64,000 nt of DNA from Phycisphaerae bacterium (GCA_030601745.1 JAUWBI010000002.1:16770-80769); one strand, 5' to 3'; shown: positions 1 to 11,740, numbered from the stretch's first letter. Numbers and translations are program-made. Notes: generated by a model from the letters alone, not told the origin.

Positions 1-2083
1 ACCGGATCCGGGCCAGATGAGCCAGACCATCATCGGTGAGCTGGGAGTGTGCGATATCCAGTTTCTTCAGCGAGCGCAGCTTCTTCAGGTGGGTGATGCC
101 AGCGTCGGTGATGTTTTCGTTCCAGTGGAGACTGAGGCGTTCGAGGTTGGGAACGTCTGATAGGTGAACCAGCGCCGCGTCGGTCAGTTGAGTCAGACCG
201 CCGAGCTGGAGGATTCTGAGTGAAGGGATATTCTTCAGGTGGACCATACCGGCGTCGGTGAAGTTCTTGCCCCAAAGCAGAAGGTACCTGAGCGAAGGTA
301 ATCGCGCCAGATGAGCCAGGCCCGCATTGCTAATACGGCCGCCGCCGAGCTCCAGCTCCTCAAGTGACGCCAACCGCCCAAGATGAGCTAAGCCGGCATT
401 AGTCAGGCGGTTTTCCTGCAGGTACAATCCCTTCAGTGACGGCAACCGGGCTACCTCAGCCAGGCCTTCATCTGTCAGCCGCTTCGATAGGGATAATCGC
501 TCCAGCGAATCGAGGCCCTTGATAAATCCCATGCCTTTGGCCGAGATATTTGTGTTCACGAGGTGCAAGACCTTCAGGCCTGTCAAATGGGCGATATGGG
601 GCATGCATCTGTCGTCGGGCAACTGGCCTCCGTCGTATGGATCGCTGATGCTTAGCATATAAAGGTCGTCGGGCTTGAGATTTGAAAGAGGCGAAAGGTC
701 TCGCCAAGCATCCTGACTTACGTAAAGGGCCAGGCGTTTGCCAGCCGGGACGGTGACGCTGCCCTGAGCCTGACCAAGGTATTTCAGGTCTGAATCCCCC
801 GTTTGCGTCCAGTAGAAAAACGTCTCGATGCGTCTTTCTGTTTTCGCGTCCTGAATCATTAGCTTGCCCAGGGAGCGATCCGGGGGGAAGTGAACAACGC
901 GCTCTTTGCTGCGAGGCGCAGTAACTTTCGCCTGTTGTTCTGCATATTTGCGAAGCAATTCCCACGCGCTCGGACGCTTTCGGACAGCAGATTTGGGCTT
1001 GGACTCGGCAGAGCCGCTTGCTTTCTTTGGCCTGCAGTCCATAATCACACGGCCTTTTTCGTCCACCACTTTGCCATCCTGCCAGGTGTACATAATGCCT
1101 TCGACACCTATAACAAAAACCCTTGCTCCATTCATAATGTCGTCAGGAACAAACGAACCCAGCGCATCATGGTCAACGTCGAGCTTTACCTCAGTGCGTT
1201 TCACATGAGTTCGGGACTTGCTGTAATCCTTACCACCCAAATCTCTATGATATCTTGCATCTGCTTCCATCGGAACCCAGAGGCCATTGATTTTTTCGAA
1301 ACGAACGATTCTTTGAGAAATATGAATTGTGTGTTCCCTGTGGAGCGGACGACCGTAGACCAGGTCGCCCCTTTTTCCGTTTATCTCATGGTTGAATCTG
1401 GCAATATTATATCCGTGTTTAGGGTCGATCCACACCGCGAGGTTTCCGAGTTTTGTAATTGCGTCTATAACATAACACTCTGAATCACCTACTTTCTCCG
1501 TCCTGTCCCGGACCGATATAGTATGAGCTTTGCGTAACTCTGAGTCTATGCGCTCGATGCTACCAAGGATAGAGCCTCTTAACGAACCTGCTTTGCTATA
1601 CAGTCGTTTAATTTTGACGTCTCTATCCTTATTTTTGGTAAGGTGGACTTTGCCAAGATTGCTGACCGGATTAAACGGGTTTCTTGCATACTGGTAGAGA
1701 TCTTTGCCATCCCACATGTAGCTTTGATAGGCAGGATTGTCTTTTGGATAATTGTCCGATGGGCTGCCCACATTACCCCACATGGATCTACGTGTTCTAA
1801 ACCGTTCGGTTTTGCCATCGAATCGAAATTCCTCGGCTTGTTTCGTGTGCAGCACTATCCCTGCCTGGTCAGGCTTGCTGCTACTCGATTCAATCGATAT
1901 TTCATGCTTAATTATGAAAGATTGATAAATCTCATCCTGTGTTTCTGCGTACTTATCCAGCAATTCAAACGCAGTGGGATGCTTCGATTTGCCCTTGCTG
2001 TGCGGGGTCCTTGCCCAACAGACCGGCACCATAACTGCACAAATCAGCGCTACAATTAGGGTTGTTCGCTTAGCGTTCCGCAT
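1..2083 (-). CDS. Secreted leucine-rich-repeat (LRR) protein, C-terminus cut by window edge
   Basis: Absent from the ORF track because no stop lies in the window. Manual minus-strand translation from ATG at 2083 (AAGGAGG 5 nt upstream) gives a signal-like MRNAKRTTLIVALICAVMVPVCWA and an open frame down to nt 2. The last ~200 codons are ~24-aa LRR units (...NITDAGITHLKKLRSLKKLDIAHSQLTDDGLAHLA...). Confidence 0.8.
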   Translation of the reverse strand, partial: MRNAKRTTLIVALICAVMVPVCWARTPHSKGKSKHPTAFELLDKYAETQDEIYQSFIIKHEISIESSSSKPDQAGIVLHTKQAEEFRFDGKTERFRTRRSMWGNVGSPSDNYPKDNPAYQSYMWDGKDLYQYARNPFNPVSNLGKVHLTKNKDRDVKIKRLYSKAGSLRGSILGSIERIDSELRKAHTISVRDRTEKVGDSECYVIDAITKLGNLAVWIDPKHGYNIARFNHEINGKRGDLVYGRPLHREHTIHISQRIVRFEKINGLWVPMEADARYHRDLGGKDYSKSRTHVKRTEVKLDVDHDALGSFVPDDIMNGARVFVIGVEGIMYTWQDGKVVDEKGRVIMDCRPKKASGSAESKPKSAVRKRPSAWELLRKYAEQQAKVTAPRSKERVVHFPPDRSLGKLMIQDAKTERRIETFFYWTQTGDSDLKYLGQAQGSVTVPAGKRLALYVSQDAWRDLSPLSNLKPDDLYMLSISDPYDGGQLPDDRCMPHIAHLTGLKVLHLVNTNISAKGMGFIKGLDSLERLSLSKRLTDEGLAEVARLPSLKGLYLQENRLTNAGLAHLGRLASLEELELGGGRISNAGLAHLARLPSLRYLLLWGKNFTDAGMVHLKNIPSLRILQLGGLTQLTDAALVHLSDVPNLERLSLHWNENITDAGITHLKKLRSLKKLDIAHSQLTDDGLAHLARIR

Positions 2084-2194
2084 GGCCGCCTCCTTATATG
2101 ACGGTTACAGTGTTTAAACAAAAACCAGGCCGGCACCTCAAATCGGTCACGGCCTGTTCTCGGGCGAATTATCATCTGGACTATTGGGTTCTTC
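2037..2194. repeat. Copy A of a ~158-bp duplicated junction (3' end of CDS + terminator + RBS + first codons of LRR gene)
   Basis: Aligns base for base with 3523-3680, with roughly 16 mismatches by eye and no gaps. Identity was not computed. Confidence 0.85.
2116..2156 (-). terminator. Intrinsic-terminator-like hairpin overlapping the stop codon of the sigma-fusion gene
   Basis: Minus strand reads CAGGCCG-(17 nt loop containing the TGA stop)-CGGCCTG followed by GTTTTTGTTT. Confidence 0.45.
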
Positions 2195-3388
2195 TGGTTC
2201 CTTGGCTCGGTAAGCGCCGCCATAGCCACCGCCATAATAGCCGCCATAGCCCATAGCAGGTGTGTTACTATCCTCGCTGTCAGTTTCTTTATCAGGCGCC
2301 GGCGGGCCGCCTACGAAGGCACCTCCATAACCGCCGCCGGCGGGCTGCCTACGAAGACGCCTGGGCTGCTCGGGACCGCGCGGCTCAGAAACAGGTCTGT
2401 CGGGAGGCGCAGCGGCCATATTCTCGGCCAACATCATTTCCATCATCATTTCCCACTCCAACCGGTCCGCTTCCTCTGCCGTTCGGGCTTTGCGGGCGGT
2501 TGGCCGGCTCTGTACGGTGCCTGGCGGTCTTCCCGACGGACGTTGCCTGAATTGCTGAGTACTATGCTGTCCTGGAGGTTGCTTAACCTCGGGCGGCTGG
2601 GTAACGTGGTTATACGTGACTACTGAGGCGACACCCACCACCGTTACCACAGCAGCGGTGACGACCTTCGCCTTGACCCCGGCCAGCACGCCGACCGCCG
2701 CCTTGGCCCCTGTGCCTGAGGTTGCTGCAGCGCTGCCGACTCCGGACCCCGCCGCTGCCGTTCCCCCCACAAGTGCCATTTTGCCTAATTCTTTCAACAC
2801 CAACGCCGGCGCTGCCTCGACAACATTTTCCCCTAACAGACCACCCAATGTAGCTACGGCAACTATTATCCCCCGCTTTCTTAGTCGCTCTCGTAGTTTC
2901 GCCACCCCGGATTCAATCCGCCGCGAGACGGTCGGCTGCGACACCTCTTTGTCGGCTGCAATATCTGTCATAGACCGACCTTCGAAAAAGTGTTGTATCA
3001 GAATCTCTTGTGTTTGCTCATCGAGTTCGCTCAGCCCTTCATCAACATACCCTGATATATCCTGCCATTTTCTCACCTCTCTGGGCTTATTGGCTGCATA
3101 TTCTGTTTCTTGCCGCCTTATTGAAGAATCCCTGCGAACAACATCAATGGCTCTGCGTGTCGCCACCCTATGCAGCCAGGCCGGTACCGAGCCGGTAATA
3201 TTCCCTGCATTCCGCAATAACAGGAAAAACGTATCCTGCACCGCATCCGCTGCCCTGTCCCTGTCTGCCAGAATCCGCAAACAAGCCCCATATACCAGCC
3301 CCGCGTGCCGCCGAACAACTTCTGAAAACGCTTCCGCATCGCCGGTCCTGGCAAACCGATGTAACAAAATAACTTCGTTCTCCAACAT
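2147..3388 (-). CDS. ECF (sigma-70 family) sigma factor fused to a transmembrane/Ala-Gly-rich segment, a Pro-rich linker and a Gly/Tyr-rich C-terminal tail
   Basis: 413-aa ORF with AAGGAG 7 nt upstream. Region 2 (LLHRFARTGDAEAFSEVVRRHAGLVYGACLRIL..DAVQDTF) and region 4 (LDEQTQEILIQHFFEGRSMTDIAADKEVSQPTVSRRIESGVAKLRERL) are recognisable. Hydrophobic stretches follow at about aa 185-260. The tail is ...GYGGYYGGGYGGAYRAKEPEEPNSPDDNSPENRP. Confidence 0.85.
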   Translation of the reverse strand: MLENEVILLHRFARTGDAEAFSEVVRRHAGLVYGACLRILADRDRAADAVQDTFFLLLRNAGNITGSVPAWLHRVATRRAIDVVRRDSSIRRQETEYAANKPREVRKWQDISGYVDEGLSELDEQTQEILIQHFFEGRSMTDIAADKEVSQPTVSRRIESGVAKLRERLRKRGIIVAVATLGGLLGENVVEAAPALVLKELGKMALVGGTAAAGSGVGSAAATSGTGAKAAVGVLAGVKAKVVTAAVVTVVGVASVVTYNHVTQPPEVKQPPGQHSTQQFRQRPSGRPPGTVQSRPTARKARTAEEADRLEWEMMMEMMLAENMAAAPPDRPVSEPRGPEQPRRLRRQPAGGGYGGAFVGGPPAPDKETDSEDSNTPAMGYGGYYGGGYGGAYRAKEPEEPNSPDDNSPENRP

Positions 3389-3485
3389 CTTATATCTCCT
3401 TTCAGTATTCGACTTTTTTAATCACTCATAAATAAGTCGTTCTGAAGCTGGAGATTATTCAGAAAATTACTCCCCTGCCTGTTTT

Positions 3486-3569
3486 TTATTTATTAACGGC
3501 CCCTTCCTCCGGCACAAAACCCGCACAAATCAGCGTTATAATCAGGATTGGTCGCTTAGCGCTCCGCAT
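3486..3569 (-). pseudogene. 27-codon remnant copy of the 5' end of the LRR gene
   Basis: The minus strand has ATG at 3569 behind the same AAGGAGG and encodes MRSAKRPILIITLICAGFVPEEGAVNK*. Compare MRNAKRTTLIVALICAVMVPVCWA at 2083. It lies inside repeat copy B. Confidence 0.55.
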
Positions 3570-3680
3570 CGCCGCCTCCTTATATAACGGTCACGGCGTT
3601 TAAACAAAAACCAGGCCGGCACTTCAAATCGGTCACGGTCTGTTCTCGGGCGAATTAGCATCCGGACTATTGGGGTCTTC
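3523..3680. repeat. Copy B of the ~158-bp duplicated junction
   Basis: See copy A. It covers the last codons of the 2571-aa gene (…PNSPDANSPENRP*), the hairpin, the RBS and the remnant start. Confidence 0.85.
3602..3642 (-). terminator. Intrinsic-terminator-like hairpin overlapping the stop of the giant BlaR1-like gene
   Basis: Paralogous to 2116-2156, with one stem mismatch, and followed by the same GTTTTTGTTT on the minus strand. Confidence 0.4.
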
Positions 3681-6600
3681 CATTTCCTCGGGCAGGATAC
3701 CACCGTAGCCACCGTAGCCACCGTAACCGCCACGATAGCTGCCGCCAAAACCGCCGTAACCACCATAGCCGCCCCTATACGTTGGAAGGTCTTCGGAATC
3801 AACTTTTTCGGCTTTGATTAGAACAAGAAGTTCCTTCTGCACCTTCCGGCCATCTTCTTCGGCTGTAACTTTCTGACCGCCCATGAGCACCGTTCCCCCG
3901 TTGGGGACTAAGACACGCGTCTTGGCACTAACTACTTCCATCTGGGGAATCTTGTACGGGTATTTTTCCTTGTACATACGCTCTTCAAACCCAAGCAGGT
4001 CAGAAAGCTCAAACCCGACATTCAGTAGTATGTGTCTGTTGTCAGGCGTGATTTTGGGCGTCACTTGGAGCTGAAGGCCTTTGTTTACGGAATCGCGCTC
4101 TGGTATTGGCTCGCCGGAAGGCCGATTCGGTTCACTATAGCCTGAGATATAGTTGACTTGTCTATGAATACTGAAAGCTGCTTCTTGGCCATCCAATACT
4201 GTTACTTTTGGTGCAGCAAGCATTTTGGAATCCTCATGAGCCTGGACAGCTTTGATGAGGAAGCTGACGTGGAGATCATCAAGTATAAGGCTATAACTTT
4301 CAGAAATCGGCAAAGCTGGAGACTCCGCAACAAGATGTTCTGACCAGACATCATCGCTTTGTATAGAATTTGCATCCAGACCGACATCTTCAAGGAAACC
4401 TTCGCTAACTACTAAAAACCGTGATTCGATTTGGATTGTACGTTTGCTGATGCCGAGCTTTTCAAGCTGTTTAGAACTCTTAAAAGTGACGTGGCTATCA
4501 TTGAATAAAACGTTGGTACCTTCTCCTTTCTCAAGCAGTGTCTTGTCATAAGCTATCACGGTGTCTGGTGGTTCTACTACTGTTTTTCCTCTGCCAAGGT
4601 ACACAACATTTTCCAATAACCATTTTAAATCGTCCTCGCTCATATCGTTTATATGCTTTTGTAGTTTCTGCAAAGTATCCGGATATTTTTCTTCGTGGTC
4701 ATTTGCATATATAAGCAGCGCGTTGCCTAATTCTTTTAACTTCTCTGCTGATTCGAGGCGGTCTTTCACTTCGGTCTTAGCCGGCAAAATCTCTATCTCA
4801 ACCGGATTGCTCACTACCCGAAGAGAAATCGTTCTGCCTTCTTGCGACAGTCCTCTCGAAAGAGCCGCACGCACAGTGTGCCAGCCCGGCGCTAACTCAA
4901 AACCTCCATTCTCATTTTGAGAACCAAGAGCCATGTCCAATGATAGCTCAAGGTTATACCATCGCTTATCCGGGCCAAATGACATGCCTTTGGCGCCACC
5001 CAGCATAGGAATCGTAACCCTATACCACACTCCGTTCACTTCAACCCCCCAATAGTCCGGTGCAGAAGTTAATAGCAGTCTGTGACTGCCGTCGTTGCGG
5101 ACATCCACCTTGAACTTCGGCGTCTCGCCGGCCGCCCACTTCCCCTTCTCCGCACGCAAACGAACTCTAATCCCCTCCGCCGCCTGACCCCAAAGCAAAT
5201 CGGCATCCGGCTTAGGATCAGGCCCCATCCTCATGATTACCGGAATGGCAACCTTCTGATTTCTCCGATAGGCCCTGGCGGCGGCAATGAGCTCCTCGGC
5301 CGCCTCTTCGCTGTGCAGGTATTTCATTACAAGTTCACGCAGTTCATCGAAGGCATCCGGCTCCCGCGCATATAACTGAACAATCTGTCCGGTCAGAGCC
5401 TGCCGATGCTCTACGAGTTCGCCGATGCGCTCGGCATGTCTTCTCACAACCATTTCTTGCTCATTTTCTTTGCGGTACTTTTCCACCACTTCCGGCGGAC
5501 CGTCAACCGTGGACACGCCGACGGCAGGTAGCTCCGGCTTGTCCTTCGGCAAACCAAATTGCAAACAGAACTCAAGCCCCCGCAGATAAATCTTCGCTGC
5601 GTCGCGCCTGCCTTTCGATAATTGAAGCGCATCACCCCAATAAACGAACAGGCGCGCCTTCTTGACGGCGTCGTGAAGATACCACCATCCCGCCCGAGCA
5701 TATTCTATCGTTTTGCTCGGATTGATTTGCCCGCTCTGGGCATATATCTCGGCAAGCTGACAATATATCAGTGCCTGCTCCTCGCGTTCAGTGTACTTCT
5801 CGAGCAACCTCTTGCCGAAAGCCTCGGCGCCGGCAAGGTCCTGTCGCTGCTGCCAGAGCTCATGAAGCTCGGCCTGCAGGGAAGTCGAAGCGTCAGCTTC
5901 GACGTCAACGGTGTCCGCTTTTTCGCCATCCGGCAAAACCTCTACCACAACCACATTGCTTTCAATACGCAAGTGCTTGGGAATCGGTATTGTCCCCGGC
6001 ACGGCCTCCGGAGGTACGGGGTCTGATACGAACATAACCAGTTGAACGGCATGCTTGCCAAGTGACAGCTTCAGCCGAAGGTCAGAACCGTATGCGCCAA
6101 CCCAGTCTTCGCTCAGAAGTATAGTGGTTTTATCCAAGGCCTCGCGCGGCTCAAGGTCGGCCGGCCTGTCAGAAACCGGTCCCTTCCAACGCCAAATTTT
6201 ACCCGCCACCTTGAGGTAGAAAAGCTCCGATGGCCGGGGCAGGCGCCACGGGCCCCGACCGACATTTCTTGCTACCGCTTGGAGCCTCGGCGTTTCGTCC
6301 GCTTTCCAGAGGCGTTTATCGGCTCGCAAGCCACATTGCAGACCAGCCACCGCCTCGCCCCAGCCCCTCTTGTCCGCCTCAGCAGGCAAAACCTCTATCA
6401 CAACCGCGTTGCTTACCACGCGAAGTCGCCGCCAGTTAGCTCGGTCCCTCGTGCTTGGGCCAAAGGACAAACGTACCGTATGCAACCCCGGCGTGAACTT
6501 CAGAGGTCTGCCATTACTGTTCCACTCCGACCATACTCCCGGATAAAACTCAATGTCCTTATGTTCCTGACCCGGACCGAACAGCAGCGTTCGAAAGTAA

Positions 6601-11350: not shown

Positions 11351-11740
11351 TTATTTTCCCTCGAATTCATCGAGCATCTTTCTTATTCTCGCAAGCTCTT
11401 TTGCGGAGACCTTCCTGGTTGAAAGTGCTCTCATAACCAGTTTTTCTGCTGAGCCGGAAAACGCTCTTTCGAGCAAATCCCCTACTAATTGCTTTTGAGT
11501 TCTCTCCTCTGACATCGCGGGCTTATAGATATGCTTCCACTGAGATTCATCTCTGACCAAAAGCCTTTTTTCAGTCATGATTTGCATAAGTTTGAGCGTG
11601 GTAGTGTACCCGGTAGCCCTGTCTTTGTTCATCGCTTCGTTGACCTGGCGAACGGTACTTGGGCCCAGATCCCATAGAATTCTTAGGATTGTTAGTTCTC
11701 TATCTGTCGGCTGTGGAACCTTTTTTCTCACCATATTCAT
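11351..11740 (-). CDS. BlaI/MecI/CopY-family transcriptional repressor
   Basis: 129 aa. The sequence ...LTILRILWDLGPSTVRQVNEAMNKDRATGYTTTLKLMQIMTEKRLLVRD... is the typical winged-helix penicillinase-repressor fold. The stop lies 2 nt before the start of the M56 gene. Confidence 0.9.
   Translation of the reverse strand: MNMVRKKVPQPTDRELTILRILWDLGPSTVRQVNEAMNKDRATGYTTTLKLMQIMTEKRLLVRDESQWKHIYKPAMSEERTQKQLVGDLLERAFSGSAEKLVMRALSTRKVSAKELARIRKMLDEFEGK

Follow-up and report, generated by a model that had tools for sequence, protein, structure and literature searches.

We analysed a window (i.e. the whole stretch of 64,000 nucleotides (nt) of Phycisphaerae bacterium, GCA_030601745.1 JAUWBI010000002.1:16770-80769) in which two genes, one encoding a membrane-tethered extracytoplasmic function (ECF) sigma factor and the other a 2571-aa BlaR1-secretin protein (hereafter the giant), end with the same C-terminal tail within the two copies of a direct repeat, named J1 for the sigma gene and J2 for the giant. 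Our comparisons make it probable that this repeat marks a recombination scar, old and inherited, between two cassettes of envelope-signalling genes that swap the tail, and not a fresh duplication. J1 and J2 appear to be paralogous copies of one junction type of Sedimentisphaerales envelope-signalling cassettes, and J1 is shown to be the working junction leading from the sigma gene to the gene of its LolA-fold partner. A previous, sequence-only reading of this DNA had proposed a duplication or gene-conversion scar; it was right in kind but wrong about the age of the scar and about the adjacent copy as its donor, as judged from three relatives described below (L073, L077 and G263). The window belongs to a metagenome-assembled genome (MAG) of 3.45 Mb (123 contigs, 87% complete), assigned through the sources of its close homologues to Sedimentisphaerales/Phycisphaerae (Planctomycetota), and all genes of the locus, i.e. 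blaI, the giant, a remnant open reading frame (ORF), the sigma gene and a LolA-fold/leucine-rich repeat (LRR) gene, lie on its minus strand.

The direct repeat and its counterparts in relatives

A repeat search and an ungapped scan identified positions 2023-2205 (J1) and 3509-3691 (J2) as an ungapped direct repeat of 183 nt with a spacing of 1486, the copies being 87% identical and differing at 24 positions. The gapless alignment of 2037-2194 with 3523-3680 noticed in the sequence-only reading lies inside it. Each copy holds the last 19 tail codons with the stop, a 63-nt spacer, an ATG and 20 signal-peptide codons, and within the spacer a hairpin is followed by GUUUUUGUUU and then AAGGAGG; both copies do run, as had been read, through stop, hairpin and AAGGAGG into the first codons of a next gene. 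The repeat occurs twice in the whole assembly (BLASTN, E = 4e-59), and a 21-mer of the spacer has two occurrences for 0.01 expected. The J1 hairpin folds at -26.5 kcal/mol (z = -2.4) and the J2 hairpin more weakly (-23.3 kcal/mol, z = -1.5); neither was called by a simple terminator scan.

Pairwise alignment sets the two segments apart from their flanks, as had been anticipated, with the 87% DNA homology stopping at 2205/3691. The sigma factor and the giant end as previously quoted and share 13 of their last 15 residues. At the DNA level, the idea of a shared GY-rich module held for the end motif and the repeat, but not further upstream, where the Gly/Tyr-coding DNA can be aligned only with gaps and the 'DSED' stretch uses different codons in the two genes (Ser AGC vs TCC); the likeness of these parts, outside the 87% repeat, appears to be compositional or older. 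At the other end of J2, the reading frame continues into the native upstream region of the sigma gene (hereafter U) and stops there after 27 codons, which bears out the remnant previously read from 3569 (3569->3486). The 61-nt signal-peptide start of the junction also recurs, at 80% identity, at the start of a second downstream paralogue in the same cassette (L071 7726-7786; L057 2808-2868), which makes a repeated module of the signal-peptide DNA as well.

Outside the window, the usual context of the sigma gene (G021, L070, L071/72, L073, L075 and L076) is a GT4 glycosyltransferase gene, a U of ~120 nt, the sigma gene, a J-type junction and one to four genes encoding ~360-aa proteins of a family with the LolA-superfamily fold. 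The sigma/LolA-fold pair is shown to be conserved in at least seven contigs, usually downstream of the GT4 gene; the GT4, TPS and TreT neighbours are absent from the window's assembly. Homology between the upstream region of the window's sigma gene and giant-less loci ends at ~3510, i.e. the end of J2. The breakpoint falls inside a TTTTNGNNCGG microhomology (~10 nt, imperfect) and reads TTTTGTGCCGG/AGGAAGG in the window and TTTTAGCTGG/, TTTTGGTCGG/ or TTTTGGTTGG/AGGAAGG in giant-less relatives. No match spanning the J2/U junction (3509/3510) was found in 170 other genomes of the family, nor in G021, L070, L071, L073, L075 and L076. The locus thus combines direct repeats with a novel junction that is absent from relatives of ancestral order and present in L077, as expected of a rearrangement scar.

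Junction comparisons placed the two copies apart. J1 is 91% identical to the orthologous junction of L070 and 96% to that of L069 over 122 nt; for J2, identity is 92% with the sigma junction of G263, 90.6% with the L077 one and 87% with J1, and at positions where J1, L069 and L070 have derived bases in common, J2 retains the ancestral ones. A recent tandem duplication of a 1486-bp unit was rejected on these comparisons and on the scar common to L077.

Two contigs proved particularly informative. L073 (an ENA ERZ25074855 contig of 3352 nt) is collinear at 1913-2827 with window 4435->3509, from the last ~270 aa of the giant through the 20 signal-peptide codons, at about 86% overall (87.4% in the secretin segment, 86.4% in the GY region, 91.5% in the tail end and stop, 88.9% in the spacer and 83.6% in the 20 signal-peptide codons). 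There, positions 1807-2703 encode a stand-alone secretin lipoprotein (signal peptide ...AALGFLLFGC) with the tail, between the sigma gene and the LolA-fold gene; it is flanked by two tail copies of ~113 nt each, and the annotated ORF starts inside the sigma tail in another frame. The L073 sigma gene is 91.6% identical to that of the window over its first 941 nt, yet the proteins share 72% identity overall. L077, a metagenomic contig from an independent JGI assembly, displays the order GT4, BlaI, BlaR1-secretin (900 aa), a 27-codon remnant (MYKAKRPILIALLFCAGFRSEESAVNK, then stop), U, sigma and LolA-fold genes, and 2580 nt of it are collinear, at 80%, with window 4454-1907. Its remnant is homologous to that of the window and occupies the same place; spacer and tail end at its equivalent of J2 differ, the spacer of the window's J2 being of the hairpin sigma type. 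Sigma, secretin-module and LolA-fold genes are found adjoining in three different arrangements. An attempt to locate the left breakpoint through the GT4-proximal spacers was given up, as those of L077 and L071 do not align.

We take these comparisons to show that J2 is a junction through which a secretin module was once followed by a secreted-protein gene of its own, this gene having been cut after about codon 20 to leave the remnant. The cut occurred when the BlaI/BlaR1-secretin block was joined to U at the ~10-nt microhomology; along with its own tail and junction, this block brought in the ~20 opening codons of the gene that formerly lay downstream of it. Since L077 carries the same scar, the joining predates the split between the window and L077 lineages, unless the joined block was transferred whole. 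As the J2 spacer is of sigma type and its L077 equivalent is not, the J2 tract (tail, spacer and signal peptide) may later have been overwritten in one lineage by a sigma-type junction, i.e. by gene conversion.

The tail on sigma factors and secretins

A large Sedimentisphaerales family of membrane-tethered ECF sigma factors, in which the window's protein has more than 500 homologues of ~400 aa, possesses the tail as its conserved and disordered C-terminus, GY-rich at first and then ending in [E/D]PNSPDxNSPENRP-COOH. Among the 120 best sigma homologues, 77 harbour at least two GYG/GGY motifs in their last 110 residues and 36 a strict P[ND][SA]P[DEN] in their last 60 residues. Close members usually end with ...YR...PEDPNSPDxNSPENRP, the family keeps the tail down to about 50% identity, and variants of it are carried by orthologues from other GTDB genera (G070, G052, G316 and G021). 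The G021 sigma orthologue (L004, G021:C46, ~1955-1990) ends with ...PPEEREESQ and a stop, PNSPD-coding DNA following in another frame; this case is a frameshifted tail or a sequencing error.

The position of the motif is specific, and the tail is not generic low-complexity sequence, which agrees with the sequence-only reading. When 301 genomes of the order were scanned for DNA encoding PNxPDxNSP, the pattern lay exactly 13 residues from the stop in four ORFs only, namely the window's sigma gene, the giant and the sigma genes of G070 and G316; the 11 remaining matches were located at other ORF positions or in short frames. With the reversed pattern as control, four matches were obtained. No Pfam or NCBIfam model covers the tail. 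Nor does it resemble a C-terminal sorting signal (PEP-CTERM, GlyGly-CTERM and similar): it has no hydrophobic stretch and no NCBIfam match, and its end, ...EDPNSPDANSPENRP, is acidic and polar. A profile of 32 tail residues searched against 1.84 billion proteins returned eight matches at E <= 0.001; it revealed architectures but was too weak for a census.

Most BlaR1-secretin relatives are tail-less, their secretin domains stopping shortly past '...LILVKPTI...' or '...LIKAEK'. On secretins the tail occurs only sporadically, yet recurrently. A GY tail was found on P0047 (BlaI-BlaR1-secretin, no sigma gene nearby), on P0063 (BlaI-BlaR1-secretin followed by an LRR/thioredoxin gene), on P0327 (792-aa BlaR1-secretin), on P0330 (secretin lipoprotein) and on the 900-aa giant of L077. 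Another bearer, P0324 (157 aa; L074, a 721-nt contig), consists of one N-in N-terminal membrane helix, a GY-rich region and a ...PEAPNSPDDNSPENRP tail, and looks like a stand-alone C-terminal half of the sigma fusion. Because the tail is exported in all these proteins, that of the sigma factor would be periplasmic too. The tail would thus be extracytoplasmic, and it would be disordered. GY-rich sequence is also seen next to a secretin domain elsewhere in the genome: C17:3377-6761 (-) encodes a 1128-aa secretin-domain protein with a run of ~150 residues of GGYGGG/GGMGG upstream of that domain, and its orthologues (~1000-1100 aa) occur across the family, so that in this lineage GY-rich low complexity repeatedly accompanies secretin modules.

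Comparison of the last 22 residues revealed that three secretin tails each match a different sigma subtype: 20/22 for the window's giant vs sigma P0109, 20/22 for the L073 secretin vs sigma P0084 and 21/22 for the L077 giant vs sigma P0099. The final 45 nt of the giant's tail are identical to those of the P0109/L073 sigma tail. Between the giant and the L073 secretin, the last 13 codons differ by one synonymous change and one change at a variable position, and the tail subtype of the L077 giant is unlike that of the neighbouring sigma factor. Three secretin tails matching three sigma subtypes argue for a recurrent exchange, in line with the earlier proposal that recombination moved the tail between sigma and secretin genes. 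The secretin domains of tail-bearing BlaR1-secretins are 31-34% identical to that of the window, vs 41-52% for tail-less relatives, so that a single clade of tail-bearing BlaR1-secretins was rejected; as the tail-bearing giants are not mutual closest relatives in this domain, the tail passed at least twice between the two gene families. With its near-universal tail, the sigma family was probably the donor. The copying may have proceeded by homologous recombination or gene conversion through the conserved tail/junction DNA.

Genes and proteins of the locus

Features of the locus are given in Table 1. The blaI gene, which also precedes the BlaR1-secretin gene in L052, L053 and L077, ends 2 nt before the giant starts. 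The giant belongs to the M56 family (PF05569 at 109.6 bits for a cut-off of 31; AHELAH, i.e. HExxH, in the translation; BlaI-type repressor adjacent). No Pfam match to a penicillin-binding (class D beta-lactamase-like) sensor domain was obtained in the giant, whose extracytoplasmic part is composed of SecDF_P1_head and secretin domains. The secretin match (PF00263) reaches 57 bits, above the cut-off, yet covers profile positions 1-123 of 169 only, and the GspD profile match runs to 543/600. Residues ~2380-2515 (window 3633-4200, -) correspond to a secretin subtype without the GVPxLSKIPxxGxLF...LLILVKPTI segment typical of most relatives, the core finishing with ...ELLVLIKAEKV. On domain content, the giant would be a regulator reaching from the inner to the outer membrane. 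A literature search on BlaR1 and secretin in Planctomycetes found no papers.

Table 1 Features of the junction locus in the window
Feature	Position	Strand	Basis
BlaI/MecI-type repressor, 129 aa, first gene of the BlaI/BlaR1-secretin block	11351..11740	-	PF03965 Penicillinase_R, E = 4.8e-25
Giant, BlaR1(M56)-SecDF_P1-secretin, 2571 aa	3633..11348	-	PF05569, PF22599, PF00263
Tail of the giant, KVDSEDLPTYRGGYGG...GILPEEMEDPNSPDANSPENRP, then stop	3633..3806	-	translation
J2: 19 tail codons, stop, 63-nt spacer (hairpin, U-run, AAGGAGG), 20 signal-peptide codons	3509..3691	-	alignment
Remnant ORF, 27 codons, truncated signal peptide of a lost downstream gene, MRSAKRPILIITLICAGFVPEEGAVNK, then stop	3569->3486	-	sequence
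U, native sigma upstream region	3389..3510	-	alignments with G021, L070, L073, L075, L076
Membrane-tethered ECF sigma factor, 413 aa: sigma2/sigma4, two hydrophobic segments, disordered P/R/Q-rich linker, GY-rich tail	2147..3388	-	Pfam, NCBIfam, hydropathy, AlphaFold2
Tail of the sigma factor, DSEDSNTPAMGYGGYYGGGYGGAYRAKEPEEPNSPDDNSPENRP, then stop	2147..2290	-	translation
J1: working junction from sigma to LolA-fold gene, same contents as J2	2023..2205	-	alignment
Chimeric secreted protein, full gene 1025 aa, running past the window start	1..2083 (C102:15775-18852)	-	BLASTP, AlphaFold2, Foldseek

The sigma factor, which has sigma2 and sigma4 as its only sigma domains, was assigned to the ECF (group 4) class from PF04542 (45.1 bits, cut-off 24) and PF04545 (32.7 bits, cut-off 24.1), and it also matches TIGR02937 at 69 bits (cut-off 42.9). 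Hydropathy revealed two hydrophobic segments after sigma4, at 173-192 (weaker) and 240-260, in a region conserved in 46 homologues. The AlphaFold2 (AF2) model built with these homologues gives residues 1-175 predicted local distance difference test (pLDDT) values of 81-94. Most of 189-413 scores below 50, the exception being a helix of low confidence at 304-324, and beyond residue ~175 there is no Pfam or NCBIfam match. The protein would thus join a sigma factor and a membrane anchor in one chain, with an extracytoplasmic, disordered part of ~150 aa in which the extreme C-terminus is the only strongly conserved feature.

The gene downstream of the sigma gene had been read as an LRR gene. LRRs are indeed present (aa 383-992), but the gene begins with a LolA-fold domain (aa 1-355). 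BLASTP linked the two parts to different proteins, i.e. 42% identity to the G021 protein downstream of the sigma gene and 46% to an L053 LRR protein downstream of a giant. The first part falls in the LolA/RseB superfamily according to its AF2 model (pLDDT 87, predicted template modelling score 0.81) and to Foldseek, with matches to 4z48 (5.9e-10), 3buu (4.4e-9) and LolA3 9tp6 (4.7e-9) in the LolA-superfamily range of 6e-10 to 1e-8; MucB (6in9, in complex with MucA) was matched at E = 7e-4, and PF17131 stayed below threshold in homologues of the LolA-fold protein. The join, at window ~880-1020, coincides with the normal C-terminus of a LolA-fold protein. The gene that follows, C102:13986-15767, encodes a paralogue of the LRR half and has a signal peptide of its own. 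A single-step model, in which a sigma-plus-LolA cassette was inserted into the signal-peptide region of the LRR gene, was dropped as sole cause, the scar being present in L077 in the absence of any LRR fusion; this fusion is a separate, later event.

Alternative explanations and known systems

An adjacent pair of direct repeats, 87% identical and with sharp ends, speaks for a recent in-situ duplication or gene conversion that copied the 3' end of the sigma gene, the spacer and the downstream start onto the giant, and the sigma-type J2 spacer, unlike that of L077, does indicate conversion by some sigma-type junction at some time. We nevertheless hold such a local and recent copy to be improbable: J1 is nearer to orthologous junctions in other organisms (91-96%) than to J2, J2 is nearer to the sigma junctions of G263 and L077 than to J1 and is devoid of J1-specific derived bases, the scar is common to L077, and the block from secretin to signal peptide is common to L073. 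The fragmented state of the MAG raises the alternative of an assembly artefact, i.e. a chimeric join of two loci or strains at the repeat. We give this hardly any credence, given that the novel junction stands at the end of the repeat and not within it, that only ~10 nt of imperfect microhomology are available with the alternative flank, that the copies differ at 24 positions and that an independent assembly, L077, shows the same architecture.

The remaining alternatives concern the tail itself. A substantial alternative, though less likely than not, is that the tail of the giant is a neutral passenger without a role there, carried along by junction recombination, and that its match to the sigma tail reflects concerted evolution of nearby repeats. 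The prevalence of tail-less BlaR1-secretins speaks for it, as do the remnant and the spacer, which point to DNA-level events and not selection as having shaped the region, the mismatch of tail subtypes within L077 and the lack of significant excess constraint on tail codons. A mere passenger is harder to reconcile with the frame and exact C-terminal motif being kept on secretins in at least three lineages with different subtypes, with the near-identity of the last 13 codons of the giant and the L073 secretin, and with secretin and sigma cassettes adjoining in three arrangements. The sequence-only reading had rather speculated that the tail is an analogue of the S-domain, binding a pilotin-like lipoprotein that the sigma factor would share, or sharing with it a localisation signal. 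The position it gave was right, i.e. the tail is C-terminal to the secretin core, as S-domains are, and the Pfam/GspD match of this core stops before the profile end. Such a function is nonetheless very improbable in view of the Gly/Tyr-rich, predicted disordered (AF2) nature of the sigma copy, unlike helical S-domains, of the absence of a Pfam or NCBIfam family covering the tail, of the lack of a pilotin candidate in the cassettes examined, where the neighbours are LolA-fold proteins, and of the tail being primarily a feature of the sigma family.

An old scar between tail-swapping cassettes remains our preferred explanation, and several points weigh against it or against parts of it. Within the microhomology, the window and L077 breakpoints are possibly ~7 nt apart. 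L073, whose sigma gene is 91.6% identical in its 5' part, lacks the scar and has its secretin gene downstream of the sigma gene, which makes any exact order of events tentative. Because sigma genes are recombinant mosaics, trees built from them are unreliable; the sigma-to-secretin direction is drawn from distribution and not from a rooted tree. At the codon level, the tail is not significantly more conserved than the rest of the gene (8/10 vs 69/128 columns). Finally, if both hydrophobic segments of the sigma factor spanned the membrane, its tail would be cytoplasmic.

As for function, the tail would most likely act as a recognition element with a free C-terminus. A motif fixed at this position would suit a PDZ-type protease or a LolA-fold partner, and the reader may be a C-terminal-processing (site-1) protease, comparable to Prc acting on IutY, or the co-encoded LolA/RseB-like protein. 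The periplasmic factor that reads the sigma factor would in that case also read a secretin or BlaR1-secretin with this C-terminus. A shared periplasmic partner or protease is plausible, its support being contextual only and coming from the three arrangements in which sigma, secretin-module and LolA-fold genes adjoin. Much more tentative, and in our view rather unlikely as a whole, is that the tail constitutes a portable extracytoplasmic address or degron placing the sigma factor and the BlaR1-secretin or secretin lipoprotein under one periplasmic reader, with subtype exchange keeping them matched.

This work describes a new, strictly C-terminal module in uncultured Sedimentisphaerales, present in four protein architectures (sigma-transmembrane-tail, BlaR1...secretin-tail, secretin lipoprotein-tail and transmembrane-GY-tail) and exchanged between sigma and secretin genes through a conserved junction. 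It offers a testable handle on the release of the membrane-tethered 'one-component' ECF sigma factors of Planctomycetota and on what the BlaR1-secretin giants communicate with. A shared reader, if real, would amount to a new wiring principle for trans-envelope signalling; should the tail have no role on secretins, the locus would be a clean case of cassette recombination building mosaic regulators, i.e. of ordinary genome evolution.

Among known systems, the S-domain/pilotin pairs of type II and type III secretion share with the tail a short region C-terminal to the secretin core. S-domains are helical, structured pilotin-binding segments; the tail has no sequence or predicted-structure similarity to them, and the cassettes examined contain no pilotin gene. 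The giant combines an M56 membrane domain with a C-terminal secretin-type module, and its pairing with BlaI is of the BlaR1/BlaI protease-repressor type and not an anti-sigma arrangement. RseB and MucB have a LolA fold and protect the periplasmic portion of an anti-sigma factor. Like RseA/RseB and MucA/MucB, the locus encodes a LolA-fold periplasmic protein beside a membrane-bound ECF sigma regulator; it differs in that the best fold matches are LolA/DUF1329 and not RseB/MucB, and in that sigma factor and anchor form one chain.

ECF sigma factors with C-terminal extensions make up 19 groups (Casas-Pastor et al. 2021, PMC7826278). The window's protein resembles them in its ECF core, its long C-terminal extension and the lack of a separate anti-sigma gene; its extension differs by a conserved extreme C-terminal motif also found on non-sigma proteins. 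Insertion of ECF sigma duplicates into coding sequences has been reported in Planctomycetes (Pinto & da Fonseca 2020, PMC7671368); the recombinant mosaic structure of the sigma genes fits these findings, the present locus being likewise shaped by recombination of a sigma cassette with other genes. The closest characterised analogue is IutY of Pseudomonas putida, a sigma/anti-sigma hybrid of cell-surface signalling in which Prc first trims the periplasmic part and RseP then releases the sigma factor (PMC5411451). Hydropathy places a membrane span after the sigma domain in one chain in the window's protein as well, and the topology proposed here has the same cytosolic ECF sigma domain, membrane anchor and C-terminal extracytoplasmic part in a single polypeptide; functional coupling to an outer-membrane protein is a further feature of IutY. 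Instead of a FecR-like domain, which neither Pfam nor NCBIfam detected, the window's sigma factor bears a disordered P/R/Q- and GY-rich tail, and its neighbours are LolA-fold, LRR and secretin genes in place of a TonB-dependent transducer.

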